Source: a virus. Taken from it: 64,000 bases of DNA. A model generated the notes under the pieces. The model made no database searches. It was not told the origin of the DNA and saw nothing but the letters and a program-made list of their open reading frames with translations. Each line of letters opens with the position of its first letter. Position 1 is the stretch's first letter. The translations under genes and the position numbers were made by a program. The stretch is taken from the IMG/VR virus record IMGVR_UViG_3300038425_000174; one strand, 5' to 3'. Positions 2,561-63,821 of this stretch are shown here, in pieces.

Positions 2561-4063
2561 ATGCCCCTAGGAATCAAGGTCACGACCGGTGAGACCGCAG
2601 GTTCAGCCGGAACATCCACCGCCACTGGCAACGCGTTCTTCATCGGTGAAGCCGAATGGGGACCCTACACGCCGCTACTGGTCAAGAGTATGGCGGCGTT
2701 CAAGGAATCTTACGGGGAACGCTCGACCATCAACGGGAAACTGTACGACGCTGTGGAAACGTTCTTCCAGCTTGAAGGCGCCCAGTGCTACGTGGTGCGG
2801 CTGCAGGAAGCGGCAAAAAGCACTGTGAAGGCTCAGCCGACGGGCTATGAACTCTCGAACACCGCGGCCAAAAAAGTGATCAGCGTGGAAGCTCGCTATG
2901 CCGGCACCTACATCAACGAATGGACGCTGGAAGTCGTGAAGAAAGCCGCGGAATCCGCGAACATTATTTTGAAGAACGCGGCCGGGGAAGTCATCGAAGA
3001 AACCGGTTACCTTGCGTCGCCGGAAAAGCTGCCGTGGGGATCGCTGACCGAATTCAACACGAGCTGGCTGACATTCAAGCAGCTCGCAGGATACGCGGCA
3101 GAACCGACGGTTCAGCTCGAAACCTACGCCGCCAAAAAAATGAAATCCTCGCAGGCGGGTACGAATCCGACGATCGCGGAAGCGGACGCTGAAGCGGGGC
3201 CGGCGCTCTTCCCGAAGACACTTGGACCTGGCCAGCTGTGCTACCCGGGTACGTCCGGCGAACCCTCGAAAGAAAAAATCCATAAAGCGATGGGTGAATC
3301 CGCGCTGAAAACCAACCGGGTGGCGCTCTGTGACATCGCAGACTCGGCGACGGCTGCAACCCTCATCACCAACAAGAAAACCTATGCGAACAACATCGCT
3401 GGGTACATGGCCTTCTTCTCATCCTCTGCCATCATCCCGGGTATCACTCTCGGCACGACCCGCACAGTTGCGGCGTCTGCGGTTGCGGCGGGCTTGTGTG
3501 CGCAGGCGGCAAAGTCCGGGAACGACTCCGCGGCACCGGCTGGGGTGCAGTGGTCGGGAACCGGTCAGGGACTCTCCCCGTTTGTGACGGGATTCACCAA
3601 CACGTTCAGCAACGAAAACATGGTGACGCTCGCGGAAAACGGGATCAACCCCTTTGCGGAACGCCAGGGGAAACCGGTGCTGTACGACTTCGTGTCCGCC
3701 CTCCCGCGCTCCACGGACAAGATCTTCTGCCAGTTCTCGGCGTCACGTGAGCGGATGCACCTCGTGTGGGCTGGGGAAGAAATCGCGGAAGGCTACCTGT
3801 TCAAGACCATAGATGGCCGGGGTCAGCTGCTCGCGGCGTTCCAGGGGTCGCTGATGGCGATGCTGAAAACCCAATGGGAAGCCAAAGCGATCTTCGGAAT
3901 TACCGCGCCGGAAGCCGGCATTGTCAACGTCGGCGAACCCGTCAACACCCTCACGACCGAGAGTGAAGGCCAGCTGAACGCGGAAATCCGGGTGCGCCTA
4001 TCCCCCTATGTCGAATCAATGTCGCTCGTCGTCATCTCGGCACCCATCACGGAAAGCATCTAG
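2561..4063 (+). CDS. Contractile tail sheath protein
   Basis: 500 aa. N-terminal FFIGEAEWGP...VKSMAAFKESYG and C-terminal LAENGINPF...AEIRVRLSPYVE are typical sheath motifs. SD GGAGG. Confidence 0.9.
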   Translation: MPLGIKVTTGETAGSAGTSTATGNAFFIGEAEWGPYTPLLVKSMAAFKESYGERSTINGKLYDAVETFFQLEGAQCYVVRLQEAAKSTVKAQPTGYELSNTAAKKVISVEARYAGTYINEWTLEVVKKAAESANIILKNAAGEVIEETGYLASPEKLPWGSLTEFNTSWLTFKQLAGYAAEPTVQLETYAAKKMKSSQAGTNPTIAEADAEAGPALFPKTLGPGQLCYPGTSGEPSKEKIHKAMGESALKTNRVALCDIADSATAATLITNKKTYANNIAGYMAFFSSSAIIPGITLGTTRTVAASAVAAGLCAQAAKSGNDSAAPAGVQWSGTGQGLSPFVTGFTNTFSNENMVTLAENGINPFAERQGKPVLYDFVSALPRSTDKIFCQFSASRERMHLVWAGEEIAEGYLFKTIDGRGQLLAAFQGSLMAMLKTQWEAKAIFGITAPEAGIVNVGEPVNTLTTESEGQLNAEIRVRLSPYVESMSLVVISAPITESI

Positions 4064-27851: not shown

Positions 27852-29273
27852 TCACGCAGCCGCCTGGAGAGGGTCGGCCTGCAAATCCTCCACGAGCGGG
27901 GGCAGGGGCTCACTGGCACCGTGTTCGGTGAGGTTGACACGCTCAGCGACGGGCCGGCGTCCCTTCCGGCGCCGCACGGCGATCGTCTCAAAGCCCGCGT
28001 CGAGCAGTCGGCGTAGCTGGTCTGAAGTGTGCTCACCGGCTGTGACTAGCTGCGGGTCGATCTGCCGTAGTGGCGTCGCCTGCTTCGCGAGCGCCTGACA
28101 TTCGGCCTGGTCTACTTCGATCTGATCCTTGCGCGCCTGCAACGCCGGGTGGTAGCCGTCGCCGAGGATACGGCGAGCAGTGGCGTCCGCCGCGAAGGTT
28201 GCCAGCTCGTCCTCTGAGTCTTCACGTTTGCGCTCAGCCGCCGCTAGGGCGCTGGAGAGATCCTCGGTTGGCGCCGCGTAGGGCGTCTTCCAGTAGTGGC
28301 GCAGGACCGTCAGGCAGTAACGCTCCAGCCGGTTGGCGAGGATCGTGGGCGGCGAGGGGCAGCCGCTGTTGCGGCATCCATAGGTCCGTTCGCCGTTTGT
28401 GTTCGAGCCGACCAGCGGGCCGCCGCAGTGGGCGCAGGAAGCGATGCCGCTCAGCGGGAACTCGCGGCTGCGGCGCTTTTTCCGGGTCGGTGCCGGTTGG
28501 GCAGCTTCCCACTCGCGCCGGCTGACGATCGGCTCATGGGCATCCTTTTGGCACAGCTCGCCAAAGGTCACTTCGCCGAGGTAGGTCCGGCTCGCGACCA
28601 TCCGCCGGACCCGAGTCGTCGTCCATTTGCGGTCCGGGGAGGCCTGGCGCAGGTACTCAGCTGCCACGCTGAGATCCAGGGCTGCCCGGCGGAACGCCTC
28701 GCGGACGATCGATGCCCGGTCGGGATCGGATTTGAGCCGGCCGTCGCTGCCGCGTACGTAGCCGAAGGTCACTGCGCCGATCTGCTTGCCTTCCCCGATG
28801 GCCTTGACCTGGGCGGCGCGGGTCCGTTCCTCCGTGGAGCGTTTCTGGTACTCGGAGACGACCGCCATCATCGTCCCGTTCATCCACTGGGCAGCGCTAG
28901 CGTCGCTGACGGCACCAAAGTCCAGCGTCAGGATGTTATCCACGCGCCTGCCGACTTCTTCCTTGATCCGTACGCCGCGGAAGAGCCGGTCGAAGTAGCC
29001 GGCCACGATCATGTCGGCCTCGCCGCGCTCGACGGCTTCTACGGCCTCGCGAAGCCCCTGGCGCTTCTCCAGCGGCGCGTCCCCTTTCACGTCGATTTCC
29101 TCGGTGCAGCGCAGCAGGGTATAGCCGTGGAGCTGGCAGGCGGCCTCCATGCGCTCGCGCTGCTCGTCGGGGGATTTGAAGTGCTCGTCCTCGCGCCCGC
29201 CGCGCTGGGAGACTCGGACGATGCCGATGGCTCGTTTCTGGCGCTGGGCCTGGTCTTCGTTCTTGCGCTCCAC
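27852..29273 (-). CDS. Large serine recombinase (integrase)
   Basis: IVRVS catalytic Ser, DRLFR, recombinase domain YLGEV, Zn ribbon CAHCGG...YGC..C, coiled coil. SD AAGGAG before GTG 29273 (alternative TTG 29300). Confidence 0.95.
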   Translation of the reverse strand: MERKNEDQAQRQKRAIGIVRVSQRGGREDEHFKSPDEQRERMEAACQLHGYTLLRCTEEIDVKGDAPLEKRQGLREAVEAVERGEADMIVAGYFDRLFRGVRIKEEVGRRVDNILTLDFGAVSDASAAQWMNGTMMAVVSEYQKRSTEERTRAAQVKAIGEGKQIGAVTFGYVRGSDGRLKSDPDRASIVREAFRRAALDLSVAAEYLRQASPDRKWTTTRVRRMVASRTYLGEVTFGELCQKDAHEPIVSRREWEAAQPAPTRKKRRSREFPLSGIASCAHCGGPLVGSNTNGERTYGCRNSGCPSPPTILANRLERYCLTVLRHYWKTPYAAPTEDLSSALAAAERKREDSEDELATFAADATARRILGDGYHPALQARKDQIEVDQAECQALAKQATPLRQIDPQLVTAGEHTSDQLRRLLDAGFETIAVRRRKGRRPVAERVNLTEHGASEPLPPLVEDLQADPLQAAA

Positions 29274-29394
29274 GGTGATCTCCTTAGGTATCGGCTCCAA
29301 AGCTGTTCTGCTTTAGGGAGCGTTGGTGGACAGCAGCGTCCGTTGATGCACATAAGCCTACCACGGTCCGCCGACGTCCGCAAGCTCCATCGGC

Positions 29395-29598
29395 CCTGTC
29401 CGGAATCAGGGTGGCGCCTTGCCTTAGCCGCGCTGCCCGTCCGTCGATACCTGCCCTAGGCGTCTCCACGAACGTTGAGCGGGGACCACCCTAATCCCGT
29501 CAGACTATCACGCTGCCAGTAAACGGGAAGAGGCCCCCTTGCGCAGAGAGCCCCTTTCCCGCTTTGGAAGTCAGACCGGTTTTCATGAACCGCCTGAC
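29395..29598 (-). ncRNA. Candidate ~200-nt structured ncRNA upstream of the integrase
   Basis: TAGCCT -10 (29605-29610) 6 nt before a 5' hairpin; 20-bp hairpin at 29521-29564; 13-bp helix GGGAUUAGGGUGG/CCACCCUGAUUCC; no credible ORF. Confidence 0.5.
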
Positions 29599-29633
29599 GC
29601 CCAGAGGCTAGCACAGGGCTCCGGTCGGCGAGA

Positions 29634-29666
29634 AGGAAAGGGGAGCCCGACGGATCGGGCTCCCCC
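29634..29666 (-). terminator. Intrinsic terminator
   Basis: 11-bp GGGGAGCCCGA/TCGGGCTCCCC stem followed by TTTCCTT on the minus strand. Confidence 0.7.
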
Positions 29667-29772
29667 TGCTCGGACGGGCCGCCCGGGATTCGCAGGCCGG
29701 ACGGTGAGGGGCAGTCTACCAGGGTCCCTCACCTCCCGCACTGCCCCTCCGTGCGTTGAGGGAGGCAGCAAA

Positions 29773-30675
29773 CTAGTACGGAATCACCGTGTGTCCGTGT
29801 GGGGTCCGAGAGGAATACTCAGTGATCCGGGTGAACATGGGGCCGCCCGTGGTGGGATCAGTCCCAGGGCGAAACGCGACGATCCGCACTCGGTATGGCT
29901 TTGATCCAATCATACCGGGATGCTCCCCGCGATCGTAGCCCGTGGCCGTCGCTCGGCCTGTGGTCCAGGTAGTCCAGTGCAGGTCAAAAAGGTTGAGGGT
30001 TTCGGCGTTGGCCGCCCCGGGCCGATCAATAAAGCATTGGCGGGGCTTGATGGGAGAACTATAGTCCGGTGGCGTTAGACAGACAAGTGCAGTGGGACGC
30101 ACGGGCCACCCTCCGAGTCCGAAGGTTTCTTCGGAGCTGGAGAGGGATACGCACCGCCAGTTTCGATTGACAAACTCCGGGTCTGTGAACGTGAACGCGA
30201 AGCGCTGGCCGTTGAAGGAGCCAACGGTGGTCACTTCGCCTGCGTAGCCTTCGAGCGTAACCCAACCAGCAATGCTACCGCCTTCGCTCGGACCACCTTC
30301 AGGTCCTGGGTAGTGAAGTTCGACCCGCTGACCGTATTGGTTGACGCCGTATTTCGGCCTGGCACGGAAGCCGCCGTCGAGCTGGTAAGTACCACAGCTA
30401 GGGCCAATGGCAAAGTCGTCCGCCGTCTCTTCCCCCCAGTAGCTAGGGTCCCACACTTCATCTTCAATGGTCAGGCTGCCAGCGCTCGCGTCATAGCGCA
30501 CGAGGACTTCGTGCTCGTACTCGTTCTGCTGGTCGGCCGGCGGTCCAGGTTCGCCGATGCTGGGCGGGCTCTTTGGCTCGGTGAACACGATGTGCCCGCT
30601 GTGGACGGTGGCGCTGGCTACCGCAGGCGTCATCAGCGCGGCGCCTACGGCGAGAGCTGCAACGAGCCTGGACGT
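29773..30675 (-). CDS. Secreted hypothetical protein
   Basis: Signal peptide RLVAALAVGAALMTPAVASA. The SD-aligned start is ACG at 30675 (alternative GTG 30735). Confidence 0.7.
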   Translation of the reverse strand, partial: TSRLVAALAVGAALMTPAVASATVHSGHIVFTEPKSPPSIGEPGPPADQQNEYEHEVLVRYDASAGSLTIEDEVWDPSYWGEETADDFAIGPSCGTYQLDGGFRARPKYGVNQYGQRVELHYPGPEGGPSEGGSIAGWVTLEGYAGEVTTVGSFNGQRFAFTFTDPEFVNRNWRCVSLSSSEETFGLGGWPVRPTALVCLTPPDYSSPIKPRQCFIDRPGAANAETLNLFDLHWTTWTTGRATATGYDRGEHPGMIGSKPYRVRIVAFRPGTDPTTGGPMFTRITEYSSRTPHGHTVIPY

Positions 30676-45239: not shown

Positions 45240-48113
45240 GTGGACGAGGCGCTTCCGTCGCAGCCACCCAAAGACGGGGCTCCAGACCGTCGGGATTCGG
45301 TGGTCCGCTGGTTCAGGCAAGCTGTGGCCGTGGTCCGTCCTAGCCGAAACGACATCCGAGAGTCCGCTCGCGCCTTCGCCCACGAGTGGGAGGGAGAGAC
45401 GAGGGAGCGCGGAGAGGCGCAGAGCTTCTGGACCGACTTCCTCCTGATCTTCGGAATCCAGCGTCGCCGCGCCCACGCGGCATTTGAGCGGCACGCTCGC
45501 CGTAGCTCAACAGGCGGGGGCGGCTTCATGGACCTGTTGTGGCCGGGCATGCTGCTAGCCGAGCACAAGTCGGCTGGCGAGGACCTCGATGAGGCGATCG
45601 ACCAGGCCCTCGATTACGTCGAGAGCCTGGACGACCGGGAGATGCCCCGCCTCGTCGTGGTCTCCGACTTTGCCCGAATGAAGATCCTCGATCTCGAAGA
45701 CGAAGCACCTGAAGCCTTCGAGTTCCCGTTGGCGGATCTCCCCCGTGAGGTTGATCGCTTTCTCGTGCTCGCCGGGTACGTAAGCCGCAAGTTCGAGGCC
45801 GAGGATGCGGTCAACGTCCAGGCGGCCGAGCTACTCGGCAAGGTGTACGACGAGATCGCGGCGACTGGCTATCCCGGTCACCAGCTCCGCATCTTCATTG
45901 TGCGAGTCCTCTTCTTGCTCTTTGGAGACGACACGGGCCTGTGGCCTCGCGAGCAGTTCGCCGATCTTGTACGCAACCGAACGGCCGAAGACGGATCTGA
46001 TCTCGGAATGTGGCTCGGGCGCCTCTTCATCGCCCTCGATACAGAGCAGAGCCATAGGACTACGGCGCTCGATGAGGACATCGCCGCATTCCCGTTCGTC
46101 AACGGCGGCTTGTACCAGGAGCGCATTGACCCGCCCGACACAACGCGTGCGATGCGGGATCGGCTGCTCGATGCGAGCGCGTTCGACTGGTCGAAGATCA
46201 GCCCGGCCGTCTTCGGGTCGATGTTCCAGTCCGTGATGGACCCTCAAGCGCGGCGCCACCTGGGTGCGCACTACACTTCCGAGGCCAACATCTTCAAGCT
46301 CATCCGACCGCTCTTCCTCGATGCACTTGAAGCGGAGTTCGTGGCGTGCGGCTCCTCGAAGGCTCGGCTCCGAGCCTTCCACGAGAAGCTCGGGGAGCTG
46401 ACGTTCCTTGATCCCGCCTGTGGCTGCGGCAACTTCCTAGTGATTGCCTATCGCGAGCTGCGACGGCTGGAGCGCGAAACCATTCTCCGGCTGAACCCCG
46501 GAGATGTCCAGATGACGACGGAACTGCACACATTGCGGAAGGTGTCTCTCGATCAGTTCTATGGCATCGAGGTCGAGGAGTTCCCCGTCCGGATCGCAGA
46601 GACCGCGATGTACTTGGTGGACCACTTGGAGAACGAGGAGCTTGGTGCCTCGTTCGGAGTCAACATCCCAGACCTCCCGCTCACGGGGTCGGCTGAGATT
46701 CGCTGTGCCAATGCCTTGCAAGTCCCGTGGGAAGAAGTTCTGGACCCGAAGGAATGCTCATTTCTGCTCGGCAACCCACCGTACGGTGGCAAGCACCTGC
46801 TTGATGACGAGCAGAAGGCAGACCTAGCCCGCATCTTTGCGGGCCACCCCCAGGGCGGATCGTTGGATTACGTGAGCGGTTGGTTCAAGCTTGCGGCCGA
46901 CTACCTAGCAACGAGTGCCGGTACGGCGATCGGAGCGTTCGTTGCTACGAACAGCATCACCCAGGGCGAGCAAGTACCGGCGCTCTGGCCGCTACTACAC
47001 GCGGCAGGGCTGCACATCATGTTCGCGTGGCGCACGTTCGACTGGACAAGCGAAGGACGCGGGAAGGCGCACGTCCACGTCGTCATCATTGGTTTCGGTC
47101 GGTCCAGGCAGGCTCCCAGCGACACCCTCTATGAGTACGACGGGGAGACAGGCACCGCTGTTGCGCTCAAAGTGCCGACGATCAACGGATACCTGGTTGC
47201 CTTCGATGAGGTCTACCCGGCTTCCAGGACGCAGCCGCTCGTGGCTGTCCCGCATGTCGTCTACGGGTCCAAGCCTGCCGACGACGGCCACCTCCTGCTA
47301 ACGGCCGAGGAGGCCGAGGAGGTCGGACGTACGGACCCCATCGCGGCGAGTTACATCCGGCCTCTGATGAGTGCGACAGAGTTTCTCAGCGGTGAAGATC
47401 GCTTCTGCTTCTGGCTCGAAGATGCCAATCCGGCGGAGGTTCGTCTCTCGCCAACGCTTACCGCGAGACTCGATGCGGTGCGCGCCTTCCGCGAAGCCTC
47501 CACGAAGGCGCAGACGAAAGACATGGCGCTCACGCCTGGACTGTTCGCCGAGGTACGTAGACCAACAGGCGATTTCATCTTTATCCCGATTCACGCAAGC
47601 GCGGCACGTCGGCTGATCCCGATGGGGTTCGTCGCAGCGGACGAGAACGCGATCGTCCATAACAGCGGCGCCTACGTGCAGGGAGCCGACCTCGCGCTCT
47701 TTGGCATTCTGCAATCGGAGATGTTCTCGGTGTGGCAGCGTGTCGTAGGGGGGCGAATCAAGAGCGACTACCGGTTCAACAATCGGTTGGTGTACAACAC
47801 CTTCCCGTTCCCTACGAACACAACGGACCACCAGCGCGAGCGCATCGAGGCGGCAGTCGACGGAGTGCTTTCGGCACGGGCTTCGCACCCTGATTCGTCA
47901 CTGGCCGACCTCTACCATCCGCTCACCTCCCCAGGCGACCTAGTAAGAGCGCATCGACGATTGGACCAGGCTGTGGACGGAGCATTTGGTCGTCGGAGCC
48001 GCCTCGGCGAGGCCGAGCGGATGTCGTTTCTCTTCGCAGAGTACGTTCGCCTGGCGAACGCGGGGCAACTCCCAGCCACTGTGGGCGCGCGACAGCGGCG
48101 CGCACCAGCGTAA
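45240..48113 (+). CDS. MmeI-like type IIL restriction-modification enzyme (fused endonuclease + N6-adenine MTase)
   Basis: EAQSFW...MDLLWPGMLLAEHKS nuclease motif, GAHYTSE, LDPACGCGNFL, GNPPY; 957 aa. Confidence 0.9.
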   Translation: MDEALPSQPPKDGAPDRRDSVVRWFRQAVAVVRPSRNDIRESARAFAHEWEGETRERGEAQSFWTDFLLIFGIQRRRAHAAFERHARRSSTGGGGFMDLLWPGMLLAEHKSAGEDLDEAIDQALDYVESLDDREMPRLVVVSDFARMKILDLEDEAPEAFEFPLADLPREVDRFLVLAGYVSRKFEAEDAVNVQAAELLGKVYDEIAATGYPGHQLRIFIVRVLFLLFGDDTGLWPREQFADLVRNRTAEDGSDLGMWLGRLFIALDTEQSHRTTALDEDIAAFPFVNGGLYQERIDPPDTTRAMRDRLLDASAFDWSKISPAVFGSMFQSVMDPQARRHLGAHYTSEANIFKLIRPLFLDALEAEFVACGSSKARLRAFHEKLGELTFLDPACGCGNFLVIAYRELRRLERETILRLNPGDVQMTTELHTLRKVSLDQFYGIEVEEFPVRIAETAMYLVDHLENEELGASFGVNIPDLPLTGSAEIRCANALQVPWEEVLDPKECSFLLGNPPYGGKHLLDDEQKADLARIFAGHPQGGSLDYVSGWFKLAADYLATSAGTAIGAFVATNSITQGEQVPALWPLLHAAGLHIMFAWRTFDWTSEGRGKAHVHVVIIGFGRSRQAPSDTLYEYDGETGTAVALKVPTINGYLVAFDEVYPASRTQPLVAVPHVVYGSKPADDGHLLLTAEEAEEVGRTDPIAASYIRPLMSATEFLSGEDRFCFWLEDANPAEVRLSPTLTARLDAVRAFREASTKAQTKDMALTPGLFAEVRRPTGDFIFIPIHASAARRLIPMGFVAADENAIVHNSGAYVQGADLALFGILQSEMFSVWQRVVGGRIKSDYRFNNRLVYNTFPFPTNTTDHQRERIEAAVDGVLSARASHPDSSLADLYHPLTSPGDLVRAHRRLDQAVDGAFGRRSRLGEAERMSFLFAEYVRLANAGQLPATVGARQRRAPA

Positions 48114-53037: not shown

Positions 53038-53301
53038 CTAATTCGCCCGTCCAGCATGTCCGGGATCGTATCCGGCCCGTTCGAGAACGTAGCCCAGGTC
53101 AAGTTCCAGCCCTCTGGCCAGACGCACGAATGTGGAGATGGGCCTCATGTCCAGGTTCCTACCCCCCCCCCGCTCCAGATAGAACATGATGCCCTCGGCC
53201 ATATCACCGCGGTCGGTGACGTCCTTCTGGCTCCAGCCGTGCGAGATACGATAGCGCCGAACCCAGCGCCCAAACGCCTCGTCTCTGCTCTTGTCGGACA
53301 C
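53038..53301 (-). CDS. XRE HTH regulator, paralog 3
   Basis: FGRWVRRYRISHGWSQKDV...YLERG...RGLELDLGYVLERAGY; TATGCT 9 nt before GTG. Confidence 0.85.
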   Translation of the reverse strand: MSDKSRDEAFGRWVRRYRISHGWSQKDVTDRGDMAEGIMFYLERGGGRNLDMRPISTFVRLARGLELDLGYVLERAGYDPGHAGRAN

Positions 53302-53314
53302 GGCTGCTGTAGCA

Positions 53315-53388
53315 TAGCAAACCGGGGCCGGGACTAAGTCCCGGCCCCGGTCCAGGAGGAGAGGAGATTTTCTCCGGTGCCCACTATA
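53315..53388 (-). ncRNA. Candidate ~60-nt sRNA with anti-SD tract and terminator
   Basis: TATAGT at 53383-53388; UCUCCUCUCCUCCU tract; 15-bp perfect inverted repeat 53321-53351 followed by UUGCU. Confidence 0.5.
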
Positions 53389-53408
53389 AACGGTTGTCGG
53401 CCGGATTG

Positions 53409-60770: not shown

Positions 60771-61926
60771 CGCCGGAACAGCTTTCGCAAGCGGCGCTCA
60801 GGAAGCTCGGCCAGCCCGATCGACCGTGCGAATGCGGCGAGATCGGTTGCCGTTTTCGCCACCTTTTGGCAACTCGCAACATCCGCGCTGGTGATCCGGC
60901 GGCTGTGTGGCGGGTACCACTCGTCGACGAGCCACGACGGCGGCACGAATTCACCTGCTCTCGTCACAACGGGCCTCATAACAGCAGCAGTCCGTTGGCG
61001 ACGGCGAGGCAGATCGACGCCACGCCCTGTCGGTGGTTGCCGGACGCGACGTCGATCACCCCGAGCACCACGAAGGCGCTCACGGCGAGATAGATACACG
61101 CTAGCCTCATCCGATGGTGGTCGGCGTCATCAGTCACGTTCCATCTCGCGGCGGCGCGCTTCCCTATCCCTGACCTCCTGAGCGGTTTCGATCTGCCCGG
61201 GCTCAGGGGACGCTTCCATGACTGCTGCCAGTAACTCGTCGTGACTCGGAAGCTCCATCATCCGTACTACCTCAAGGGCCTTTTCGATGGTGCCAGCGGC
61301 TCGGATTTTTACGAGATCCCGTAAAAATCCGAGCGCGATCCGCATGTATTCCGAGGCCGTCATGGGACCGCCTACCAGTCCATCCCGCACCGTCCCCCAG
61401 TCACCATCATGCCGTGTCTTCTTCTTGCGAACCACTAGGCCCGCACCCGCGAGGATTGCGTAGCCGAGAGCACCCGATTGAAAGGTGCCGACCCCGGCGT
61501 GCGCCTTACGGACGATGTTGTCCACGGCCCTGGGGGTAACCGCCGCCTGAAACGTCGGCAGCGCCAGCTCGGTGCTCATCCTGACTCCTTCAGTTGTTTG
61601 GTATAGACCTTCCGCACCTCCATCGCAGACTCGTTGTCCAGTATCGACACGGCCCGCTTCATCGCGGCGAGCATGGCCCTCTCGCGCCGTTCCGCCTCAC
61701 GCATGTTGTGCAGGAATACCTGGGCTTCCGCCCGTCCACCCGTGTCGTGAATCAGCTCGAACTCAGGCGGCGCGTCCCCAATCGGGAACCAGCGCTCATA
61801 CACCGTGCCGTCCTTCATGTAGACGAATAGGAACTCCCCCTCGCTGTCTCCGTAGCGCTTCTCCATGCGCACGTAGAGCATCGGGAGTCCCTCGGGTGTG
61901 CGGTAAATCTGTCCAGGCGCGAGCAT
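60767..61926 (-). CDS. Three hypothetical ORFs (60767-61099, 61130-61579, 61576-61926)
   Basis: The first gene of the operon starts 8 nt after a TAGCTT -10. Confidence 0.55.
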
Positions 61927-62861: not shown

Positions 62862-63821
62862 ATGAGTCTTGAGGACGCAATCGCCGACATCGGGCGCACA
62901 TTCGGCGCTGGAAGCATTCTCCGGCTCGCCAGCTCACCGTCACTTGATGTGGAGGTAGTGCCTACGGGCGCCCTCACTCTTGACATGGCTCTGGGAGTGG
63001 GCGGACTGCCGCGTGGTCGCATCGTAGAGATCTTCGGTCCCGAGTCCTCCGGTAAGACGACGCTCGTGCAGCACGTCATCGCCAACGCCCAGGCTGCCGG
63101 CGGTGTGTGTGCGTTCATAGACGCCGAGCACGCGCTTGATCCCGCGTATGCCGAGGCCACCGGGGTGAACACGAAGGAGCTTCTTTTCTCTCAGCCGAAC
63201 AGCGGCGAGGAGGCGTTGGAGATCGCGAGCAGGCTTGTTGCGTCCGGTGAGGTAGCGGTGATCGCGATCGACTCCGTCGCAGCACTCACGCCGAGGGCTG
63301 AGCTTGCCGGTGAGATGGGCGACGCCTCGATCGGGCTCCAGGCACGGCTGATGGGGCAAGCGATGCGCAAGCTCGCCGGTCCAGCGTCCCGAAGCAAAAC
63401 GCTGATCGTCTTCACCAACCAGATCCGCGAAAAGGTCGGGGTCATGTTCGGCTCGCCGGAGACTCAGCCCGGTGGTCGAGCACTGAAGTTCCAGGCGACG
63501 CAGCGTCTCGACATCCGCCGTATCGGTACGGATAAGGATTCAGCCGGCGCGGCCTTCCAGAACCGGGTTCGTGTAAAGGTCGTGAAGAACAAGGTCGCTT
63601 CGCCATACCGTCAGGCCGAGTTCTCCATTCGCTTCGGAGAAGGTATTGACACGGTCGGCGAGCTGCTCGATCTTGCGGTTACGCAAGGCGTCATCAAGAA
63701 GGCCGGCGCCTGGTTTCAGGTTGATGGCGATCGGATACAGGGCTACGAGGCTGCACGCACCGCGTTGATCGACCTCCCGGATCTGATGGCATCTATTCGC
63801 GCCACGGCGCTCGACGTATGA
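62862..63821 (+). CDS. recA: RecA recombinase
   Basis: GGLPRGRIVEIFGPESSGKTT, FIDAEHALD, IDSVAALTPRAE, QARLMGQAMRKL, FTNQIREKVG; lacks the acidic C-terminal tail. Confidence 0.97.
   Translation: MSLEDAIADIGRTFGAGSILRLASSPSLDVEVVPTGALTLDMALGVGGLPRGRIVEIFGPESSGKTTLVQHVIANAQAAGGVCAFIDAEHALDPAYAEATGVNTKELLFSQPNSGEEALEIASRLVASGEVAVIAIDSVAALTPRAELAGEMGDASIGLQARLMGQAMRKLAGPASRSKTLIVFTNQIREKVGVMFGSPETQPGGRALKFQATQRLDIRRIGTDKDSAGAAFQNRVRVKVVKNKVASPYRQAEFSIRFGEGIDTVGELLDLAVTQGVIKKAGAWFQVDGDRIQGYEAARTALIDLPDLMASIRATALDV

Follow-up and report, generated by a model that had tools for sequence, protein, structure and literature searches.

Tandem small-RNA-like units next to the attachment site of a temperate phage with a large serine integrase: a possible orphan sRNA cluster

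Background

In the phage analyzed here the integrase gene is preceded by a non-coding gap that folds strongly on one strand, and the question is what this gap produces and whether the product serves the neighbouring recombinase. The original prediction was a single promoter-led RNA of around 200 nt on the minus strand, which would regulate integration and excision and might even guide the integrase. A promoter-led, structured non-coding RNA on the minus strand is indeed plausible and has no match in Rfam, but a single simple gene of 200 nt is probably not what the gap contains. Our preferred reading, held tentatively and at slightly less than even chance, is an orphan cluster of phage sRNAs, a tandem series of predicted small-RNA genes in the part of the early minus-strand arm closest to attP, which would act in trans and would insulate as well.

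The phage and its integrase

The 64,000-nt window (the whole stretch of DNA analyzed) comprises most of a tailed temperate phage, with around 26 kb of the genome lying outside it. The plus strand carries the structural and lysis genes up to about 28 kb. The early genes run from 62 kb to the integrase and use mainly the minus strand; most genes between 30 and 62 kb point towards int. The host group probably consists of Solirubrobacterales soil bacteria, because the chromosomal relatives of the integrase are mostly found in Solirubrobacterales genomes. The integrase has the Pfam domain make-up of an ordinary large serine recombinase and starts with a GTG at 29273, preceded by an AAGGAG ribosome-binding site (RBS). 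No convincing open reading frame was found in the gap upstream of it (29274-29772), the features of which are collected in Table 1. Elsewhere the phage carries an MmeI-like restriction-modification gene (45324-48113, plus strand) and a recA of its own (62862-63821, plus strand).

Table 1. Features of the integrase-proximal gap and the integrase gene (window coordinates)
Feature	Position	Strand	Remarks
Promoter motif A	29713-29741	-	Extended -10 at 29721-29713; -35-like hexamer 17 nt upstream, resembling promoter D; putative function
Unit A, ~75 nt, sRNA-like	29631-29706	-	8-bp hairpin, linker, GC-rich terminator and U tail
Promoter motif B	29605-29613	-	Extended -10; start predicted at G29598; spacing judged against the leaderless int promoters found in the host group
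Unit B, ~80 nt	29518-29598	-	Hairpin 1 (29598-29570) and 19-bp terminator-like hairpin 2 (29564-29521), weak U tail
Linker with promoter motif C (29510-29502)	29499-29520	-	Complementary to the 5' end of unit B
Rod C, ~95-100 nt	29401-29499	-	14-15-bp closing helix, branched interior; predicted start ~29495, or 3' arm of a read-through RNA
Promoter motif D	29355-29383	-	-35, 17-nt spacer, extended -10; putative geometry, from the attP position
attP	29305-29354	-	Central dinucleotide TC at 29330-29329; placed from relatives
Sigma28/WhiG-type promoter motif	29288-29315	-	TAAA, 16 nt, GCCGATAC; between attP core and RBS
Large serine integrase, 473 aa	27852-29273	-	Pfam Resolvase, Recombinase, Zn-ribbon; gene calls P0001, P0029

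Promoter motifs and strand-specific folding

Four co-oriented extended -10 motifs (starting at 29721, 29613, 29510 and 29363) occur in the gap within 360 nt. In the window as a whole 11 such motifs were seen, against 2.9 expected from order-4 Markov simulations, and the densest cluster within 500 nt held 4 of them, compared to at most 2 in 60 simulations. Among the leaderless int genes of the host group, 30 of 79 loci have a TAnnnT hexamer that precedes the start codon by 6-8 nt, and 14 of 35 hexamers are TG-extended; this usage supports the reading of the four gap motifs as predicted promoters, A to D. Neither promoter B nor promoter C is preceded by a good -35, and motif C is an exact fit to the promoter consensus of the phage itself. 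At the 3' ends, the terminator is clear for unit A, weak for unit B and absent after rod C.

A check of the sequence recovered all elements of the original prediction at their claimed minus-strand places, including TAGCCT (29610-29605) 6 nt ahead of G29598, hairpin 1 with 11 bp (29598-29570), the 13-bp helix (29498-29486 with 29414-29402, enclosing 71 nt where about 70 had been claimed), a second CUGAC (29503-29499) and the TAGGCT on the integrase side (29360-29355). Two elements needed adjustment: the '20-bp' hairpin 2 is present at 29564-29521 but comprises 19 bp plus a bulge, and the terminator described as insulating (stem 29666-29640, U-rich tail to 29631) exists but represents the 3' end of unit A itself. 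Two of the extended -10 motifs had been overlooked, one inside the proposed RNA (29510-29502) and one further upstream (29721) that leads a third unit.

The 203 nt between 29397 and 29599 fold on the minus strand with a z-score of -4.74 (none of 200 shuffles was as stable), and on the plus strand with a z-score of only -1.03. The same bias holds for unit B alone (-5.26 versus -2.46) and for rod C alone (-2.93 versus -0.42); unit A scored -2.7, and the folding window over hairpin 2 ranked 15 among 4262. The stems of B and C include 9 G-U pairs and two 1x1 mismatches, both of the latter within C, a pattern in keeping with selection acting on one strand rather than with a double-stranded palindrome. 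Folding with DNA parameters gave weaker z-scores than folding with RNA parameters, and RNA-level structure is therefore favoured over structure in single-stranded DNA. The structure in 29397-29599 is real and strand-specific. The loop of hairpin 1 consists of a self-complementary 8-mer (29589-29582, minus strand), a possible kissing or dimer site; cofolding of two B units yields about 10 kcal/mol, a figure that comes without a null comparison.

Position of the attachment site

L121 is the locus with the closest integrase (P0002, 48% identical). When the segment that follows promoter D is compared with its counterpart there, 38 of 63 ungapped positions agree, where the background maximum was 35 in 1.7 Mb. 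Both att segments display a dyad symmetry, in register and centred on the same TC. Within the integrase clade, which was selected by C-terminal HMM score, one member was available both as a free phage (L238) and as a prophage inside an MFS transporter gene (L239), and the sequence shared by the two begins a few bases before the equivalent TC core; L237 and L243 align at the att core likewise. On the basis of this match, the dyads, the free/integrated pair and the latter alignment we infer that attP lies at about 29354-29305 and thus outside the RNA region.

The suggestion that attP may overlap the RNA therefore does not hold, as attP sits downstream of it, and the RNA region itself fails to display the ~50-bp dyad around a central dinucleotide that marks a serine-integrase attP. 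The idea that the inverted repeats are attP arms or simply chance can draw on the fact that GC-rich DNA folds readily and that the region adjoins int. Considering the location of attP, the strand-specific stems with G-U pairs and the z-scores down to -5.3, its probability is negligible.

Because attP lies between the units and int, integration would put A, B, C and promoter D at one end of the prophage and int at the other, so that cis control of int by the units is possible only in unintegrated DNA; likewise, promoter D would act on int only while the phage is unintegrated. In the chromosomal relatives, for which mostly the int-side ends were covered, int adjoins the att site and host genes such as bcp and miaB follow at a few tens of bases. 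A search for attB of this phage in 401 genomes returned nothing convincing, and no integration junction of the phage itself turned up. It probably inserts into an MFS transporter gene, at the conserved D-x-T/S motif.

In MFS transporter genes, the integrase clade targets a D-x-T motif close to the gene start (L239:4940-4985 compared to L238; L243). In L239 the phage arm supplies the cut MFS gene with a new in-frame start, and the att arm in the window (29305-29340, plus strand) holds an RBS-like hexamer and a GTG at the equivalent position. The loci L148-L227 represent an extensive family of Solirubrobacterales elements with serine integrases. Their insertion sites are bcp/peroxiredoxin, miaB, efp and moeA, and the att arm itself contains the leaderless int promoter.

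A sigma28/WhiG-type promoter motif beside int

Thermoleophilia possess WhiG and RsiG, and in Rubrobacter the corresponding promoter consensus marks pilus and c-di-GMP genes (PMC8325347). With the consensus taken from that study, a single match was found in the window, which is kept in register in L121 (3955-3982) amid divergent flanks. Three host-group genomes contained 12 matches versus 1 for the control, and these precede genes for PilM, a PilB-like ATPase with an MshEN domain and a HAMP protein. The other clade members have leaderless housekeeping int promoters instead. The motif is predicted to remain with int in the prophage, which suggests that integrase expression in the lysogen could be linked to c-di-GMP or pili. 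SPbeta in spsM and skin, as outlined in PMC4191935 and PMC5025042, are developmentally controlled serine-integrase elements, and on that outline they resemble the present case in a possible link between integrase and alternative sigma factor and in the insertion of the element in a host gene. They differ from it in that the motif described here is predicted, of the sigma28/WhiG type and connected to a non-sporulating actinobacterial host.

Short RNAs or one two-arm RNA

The 22-nt linker can pair with the 5' end of unit B via three short helices, and a B read-through transcript refolded in this way would form a 100-nt rod that adjoins rod C without a spacer, yielding a two-arm form of ~200 nt. 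The two folds are nearly isoenergetic, within 1 kcal/mol (-99.0 versus -98.7 to -99.7 kcal/mol), and in a post hoc test only 3 of 400 linker shuffles were as stable, also with the promoter motif held fixed. The suspicion that the second CUGAC could pair with the 5' GUCAG in a bistable arrangement is thus borne out in silico. Hairpin 2 is intact in both folds, and the arrangement is therefore not a classical terminator/antiterminator switch.

These data bear on a reading in which promoter B yields one RNA (29598 to ~29400) with two functional, stacked arms of ~100 nt, hairpin 1 being a metastable intermediate and the internal -10 incidental or minor. The two-rod fold is the minimum free energy structure of 29397-29599, the arms abut without a spacer, the linker complementarity is rare among shuffles and the U tail of B is weak; in addition, the outer 3-4 bp of the closing helix of rod C lie upstream of the predicted start of promoter C, which speaks for the long form and against an independent C. 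On the other hand, the ensemble prefers hairpin 1 (97% versus 2.5% for the alternative), which is also the first to form during transcription, the internal motif is an exact phage promoter consensus, a terminator is missing after rod C and the complementarity test was post hoc. We consider the single RNA rather unlikely. The short RNAs and the 200-nt form both find support in the sequence, and they may coexist.

In the two-arm form the continuous strand carries positions -24 to +10 of promoter C, and the first two bases of the -10 hexamer are unpaired. The ~200-nt read-through RNA could conceivably act as a phage-made promoter decoy for the host RNA polymerase or, less likely, as a partner of the serine integrase, but we regard this as very unlikely; compared with 6S RNA, a polymerase decoy would be alike in function and different in topology.

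Type I toxin mRNAs use metastable hairpins, and the B read-through could encode a 28-residue peptide (29586-29500), silenced by structure, in a type I toxin-antitoxin system. The open reading frame is exactly coextensive with the refolded rod and begins within the loop of hairpin 1, but the peptide is Gly-rich and neither hydrophobic nor transmembrane-like, the RBS is poor and the plus strand lacks an extended -10 for an antitoxin, which makes a toxin very unlikely.

Homologs, known families and recurrence of the layout

The original prediction did not recognize the family of the RNA, and the Rfam search agrees with this: the covariance models (among others for 6S, Ms1, SRP, tmRNA, Y RNA, riboswitches, ribozymes and CRISPR repeats) gave no match in the window at gathering score, and at the level of E-values just generic hairpin and terminator matches far below it. 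ARAGORN found no tRNA or tmRNA, and descriptors and patterns for self-cleaving ribozymes (HDV-like, hammerhead, twister, pistol, hairpin) found nothing on either strand of 29250-29800. A likeness to SRP, tmRNA and Y RNA seen by eye was unsupported by Rfam, and an HDV-like reading, prompted by a GGCUAAG motif, was discarded as loop 3 and P2 do not fit.

Searches for homologs gave a similar outcome. A blastn search against the phage collection yielded no match, a DNA search of 401 genomes of the order Solirubrobacterales five short chance matches, and 27 virus records with related integrases short matches alone. In an exact-pattern scan of viral contigs a 14-mer recovered chance matches alone, and the patterns of hairpin 1 and of the rod C helix recovered none. 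Single-sequence covariance models of B and C, with self-recognition as the sole positive control, found nothing in 151 genomes each, in 39 integrase loci or in a related 83-kb myovirus, which itself lacks this integrase. HslV-like homologs of a neighbouring gene were also followed, but these led to unrelated phages. The absence of conservation next to homologous integrases, named beforehand as an outcome that would speak against the original prediction, was what we found: no homolog of A, B or C neighbours int in around 130 related loci. Six other contigs represent the same phage and are identical in this region, and no diverged homolog was found for covariation.

What does recur among the relatives is the layout of promoter, hairpin and terminator, and not the sequence. 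L237 and L238 have such a unit just upstream of attP, unrelated in sequence to those in the window; L121 has a cluster of structured units ~1 kb upstream of int, and L243 has none next to attP. The units of L238 (4855-4925) and L237 (3262-3340) have a short CUAGUUG linker in common, which extends to an anti-Shine-Dalgarno tract in L238, and the L121 cluster (2795-3050) includes a closed rod of ~100 nt (z-score -4.5), the sequence of which is unrelated to rod C. Within the phage, further strongly folded intergenic units were seen at 39033-38920, 38908-38820, 45540-45680, 53270-53400 and 61260-61400, and none of the other folded units is homologous to A, B or C. The presence of several promoter-led structured units elsewhere in the phage points to a habit of the genome and not to a feature specific to the integrase. 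Another promoter-led rod, of ~95 nt (36120-36025, minus strand; z-score -4.0), carries the sole hammerhead-like core variant in the window; Rfam finds no hammerhead in it and just a weak likeness to CRISPR-DR52 (E 4). This rod is a candidate ribozyme variant or a candidate solitary mimic of a CRISPR repeat.

Is there a link to the integrase?

A role in integration and excision, as proposed originally, finds no support in the data: pairing of the RNA with the int leader did not exceed the level of shuffles, no guide-like match to attP was found and the RNA would reside at the prophage end opposite to int. The speculation that the serine integrase is bound or guided by the RNA, or that the RNA takes the place of the directionality factor, fares no better. 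Apart from proximity it can point to a match of 10 out of 11 that rod C (29448-29438) shows to the left arm of attP, but this match lies off the core and was equalled in 6 of 60 shuffles, and nothing spans the crossover core. Furthermore, the integrase has the domains of an ordinary large serine recombinase, and its relatives recombine at att sites adjoining int without an RNA homolog. Judged by the standards of bridge and seek RNAs, we found no core-spanning loops on the attP side and no co-conservation with the recombinase (~130 loci), and we found no published case of a large serine recombinase that works with an RNA. The resemblance to the IS110 bridge RNA and the IS1111 seekRNA is limited to a non-coding RNA beside a recombinase gene in the unintegrated form; the recombinase is of another family, and the units lack target and donor loops, leave the junction unspanned and are not conserved with the enzyme. 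Taken together, an integrase partner or guide is highly improbable.

We rate an RNA-primed origin of replication equally low. The precedent is formed by the parABS cluster A mycobacteriophages, in which RNA replication origins are found at the lysogeny-maintenance locus (PMC7157519), so that a non-coding RNA at a lysogeny module is shared. Those phages, however, have parABS and no integrase, whereas the locus here consists of an intact integrase and attP, and neither ParA nor ParB is among the top 25 families listed for the open reading frames scanned in the window.

A more serious alternative, though again an unlikely one, on a par with the single long RNA, is that the gap works in cis only. 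Its stacked promoters and terminators would then set the level of read-through into attP and int while the phage is unintegrated and would insulate the host in the lysogenic state, and the RNAs would be by-products. This reading agrees with the orientation of most 30-62 kb genes towards int, with the terminators that precede attP in L237 and L238 as well and with the lack of sequence conservation. But rod C is branched and closed and not a terminator, a promoter followed by its own terminator 80 nt on has no insulating use, placing B and C upstream barely alters the predicted accessibility of the RBS, and L121 and L243 lack such a cassette beside attP.

Proposed role of the units

For the cluster of small RNAs speak the clustering of the motifs, the strand-specific, G-U-rich folding, the recurring layout, the similar units elsewhere in the phage and the lack of an open reading frame. 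In this scheme the housekeeping RNA polymerase of the host would start at the extended -10 promoters A, B and C, giving short, stable and nearly fully paired RNAs of presumably ~75 (A), ~80 (B) and ~95 nt (C). The weak terminator of B would leak, and the resulting ~200-nt form would refold into two abutting rods. The predicted RNAs might act in trans by binding a protein, as a decoy or sponge, in the lysogen or during early infection, a guess based on their nearly complete pairing and on the fact that no mRNA partner emerged, as a search for sRNA targets within the phage found none. At the same time the stacked terminator hairpins could keep read-through of the early genes away from attP, int and the host junction. 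The units would thus be accessory cargo and not recombination machinery.

Precedents exist for such RNAs. [quoted passage not shown]

Prophage-encoded trans-acting sRNAs with intrinsic terminators form a general class, and units A and B share with it the layout of promoter, 5' hairpin and terminator within 75-80 nt. They differ by the scant unpaired seed, and rod C and the refolding form are atypical.

As an orphan sRNA cluster, the locus would add one more uncharacterized RNA in an uncultured phage of little-studied soil hosts, which is of modest interest. Its importance would be far greater if the bistable 200-nt form were indeed a polymerase decoy or an integrase partner. More usable are the by-products of the analysis, namely the located attP, the likely MFS target and the predicted WhiG-type promoter, and the latter, if true, would tie the expression of the integrase in the lysogen to the c-di-GMP and pilus programme of the host.
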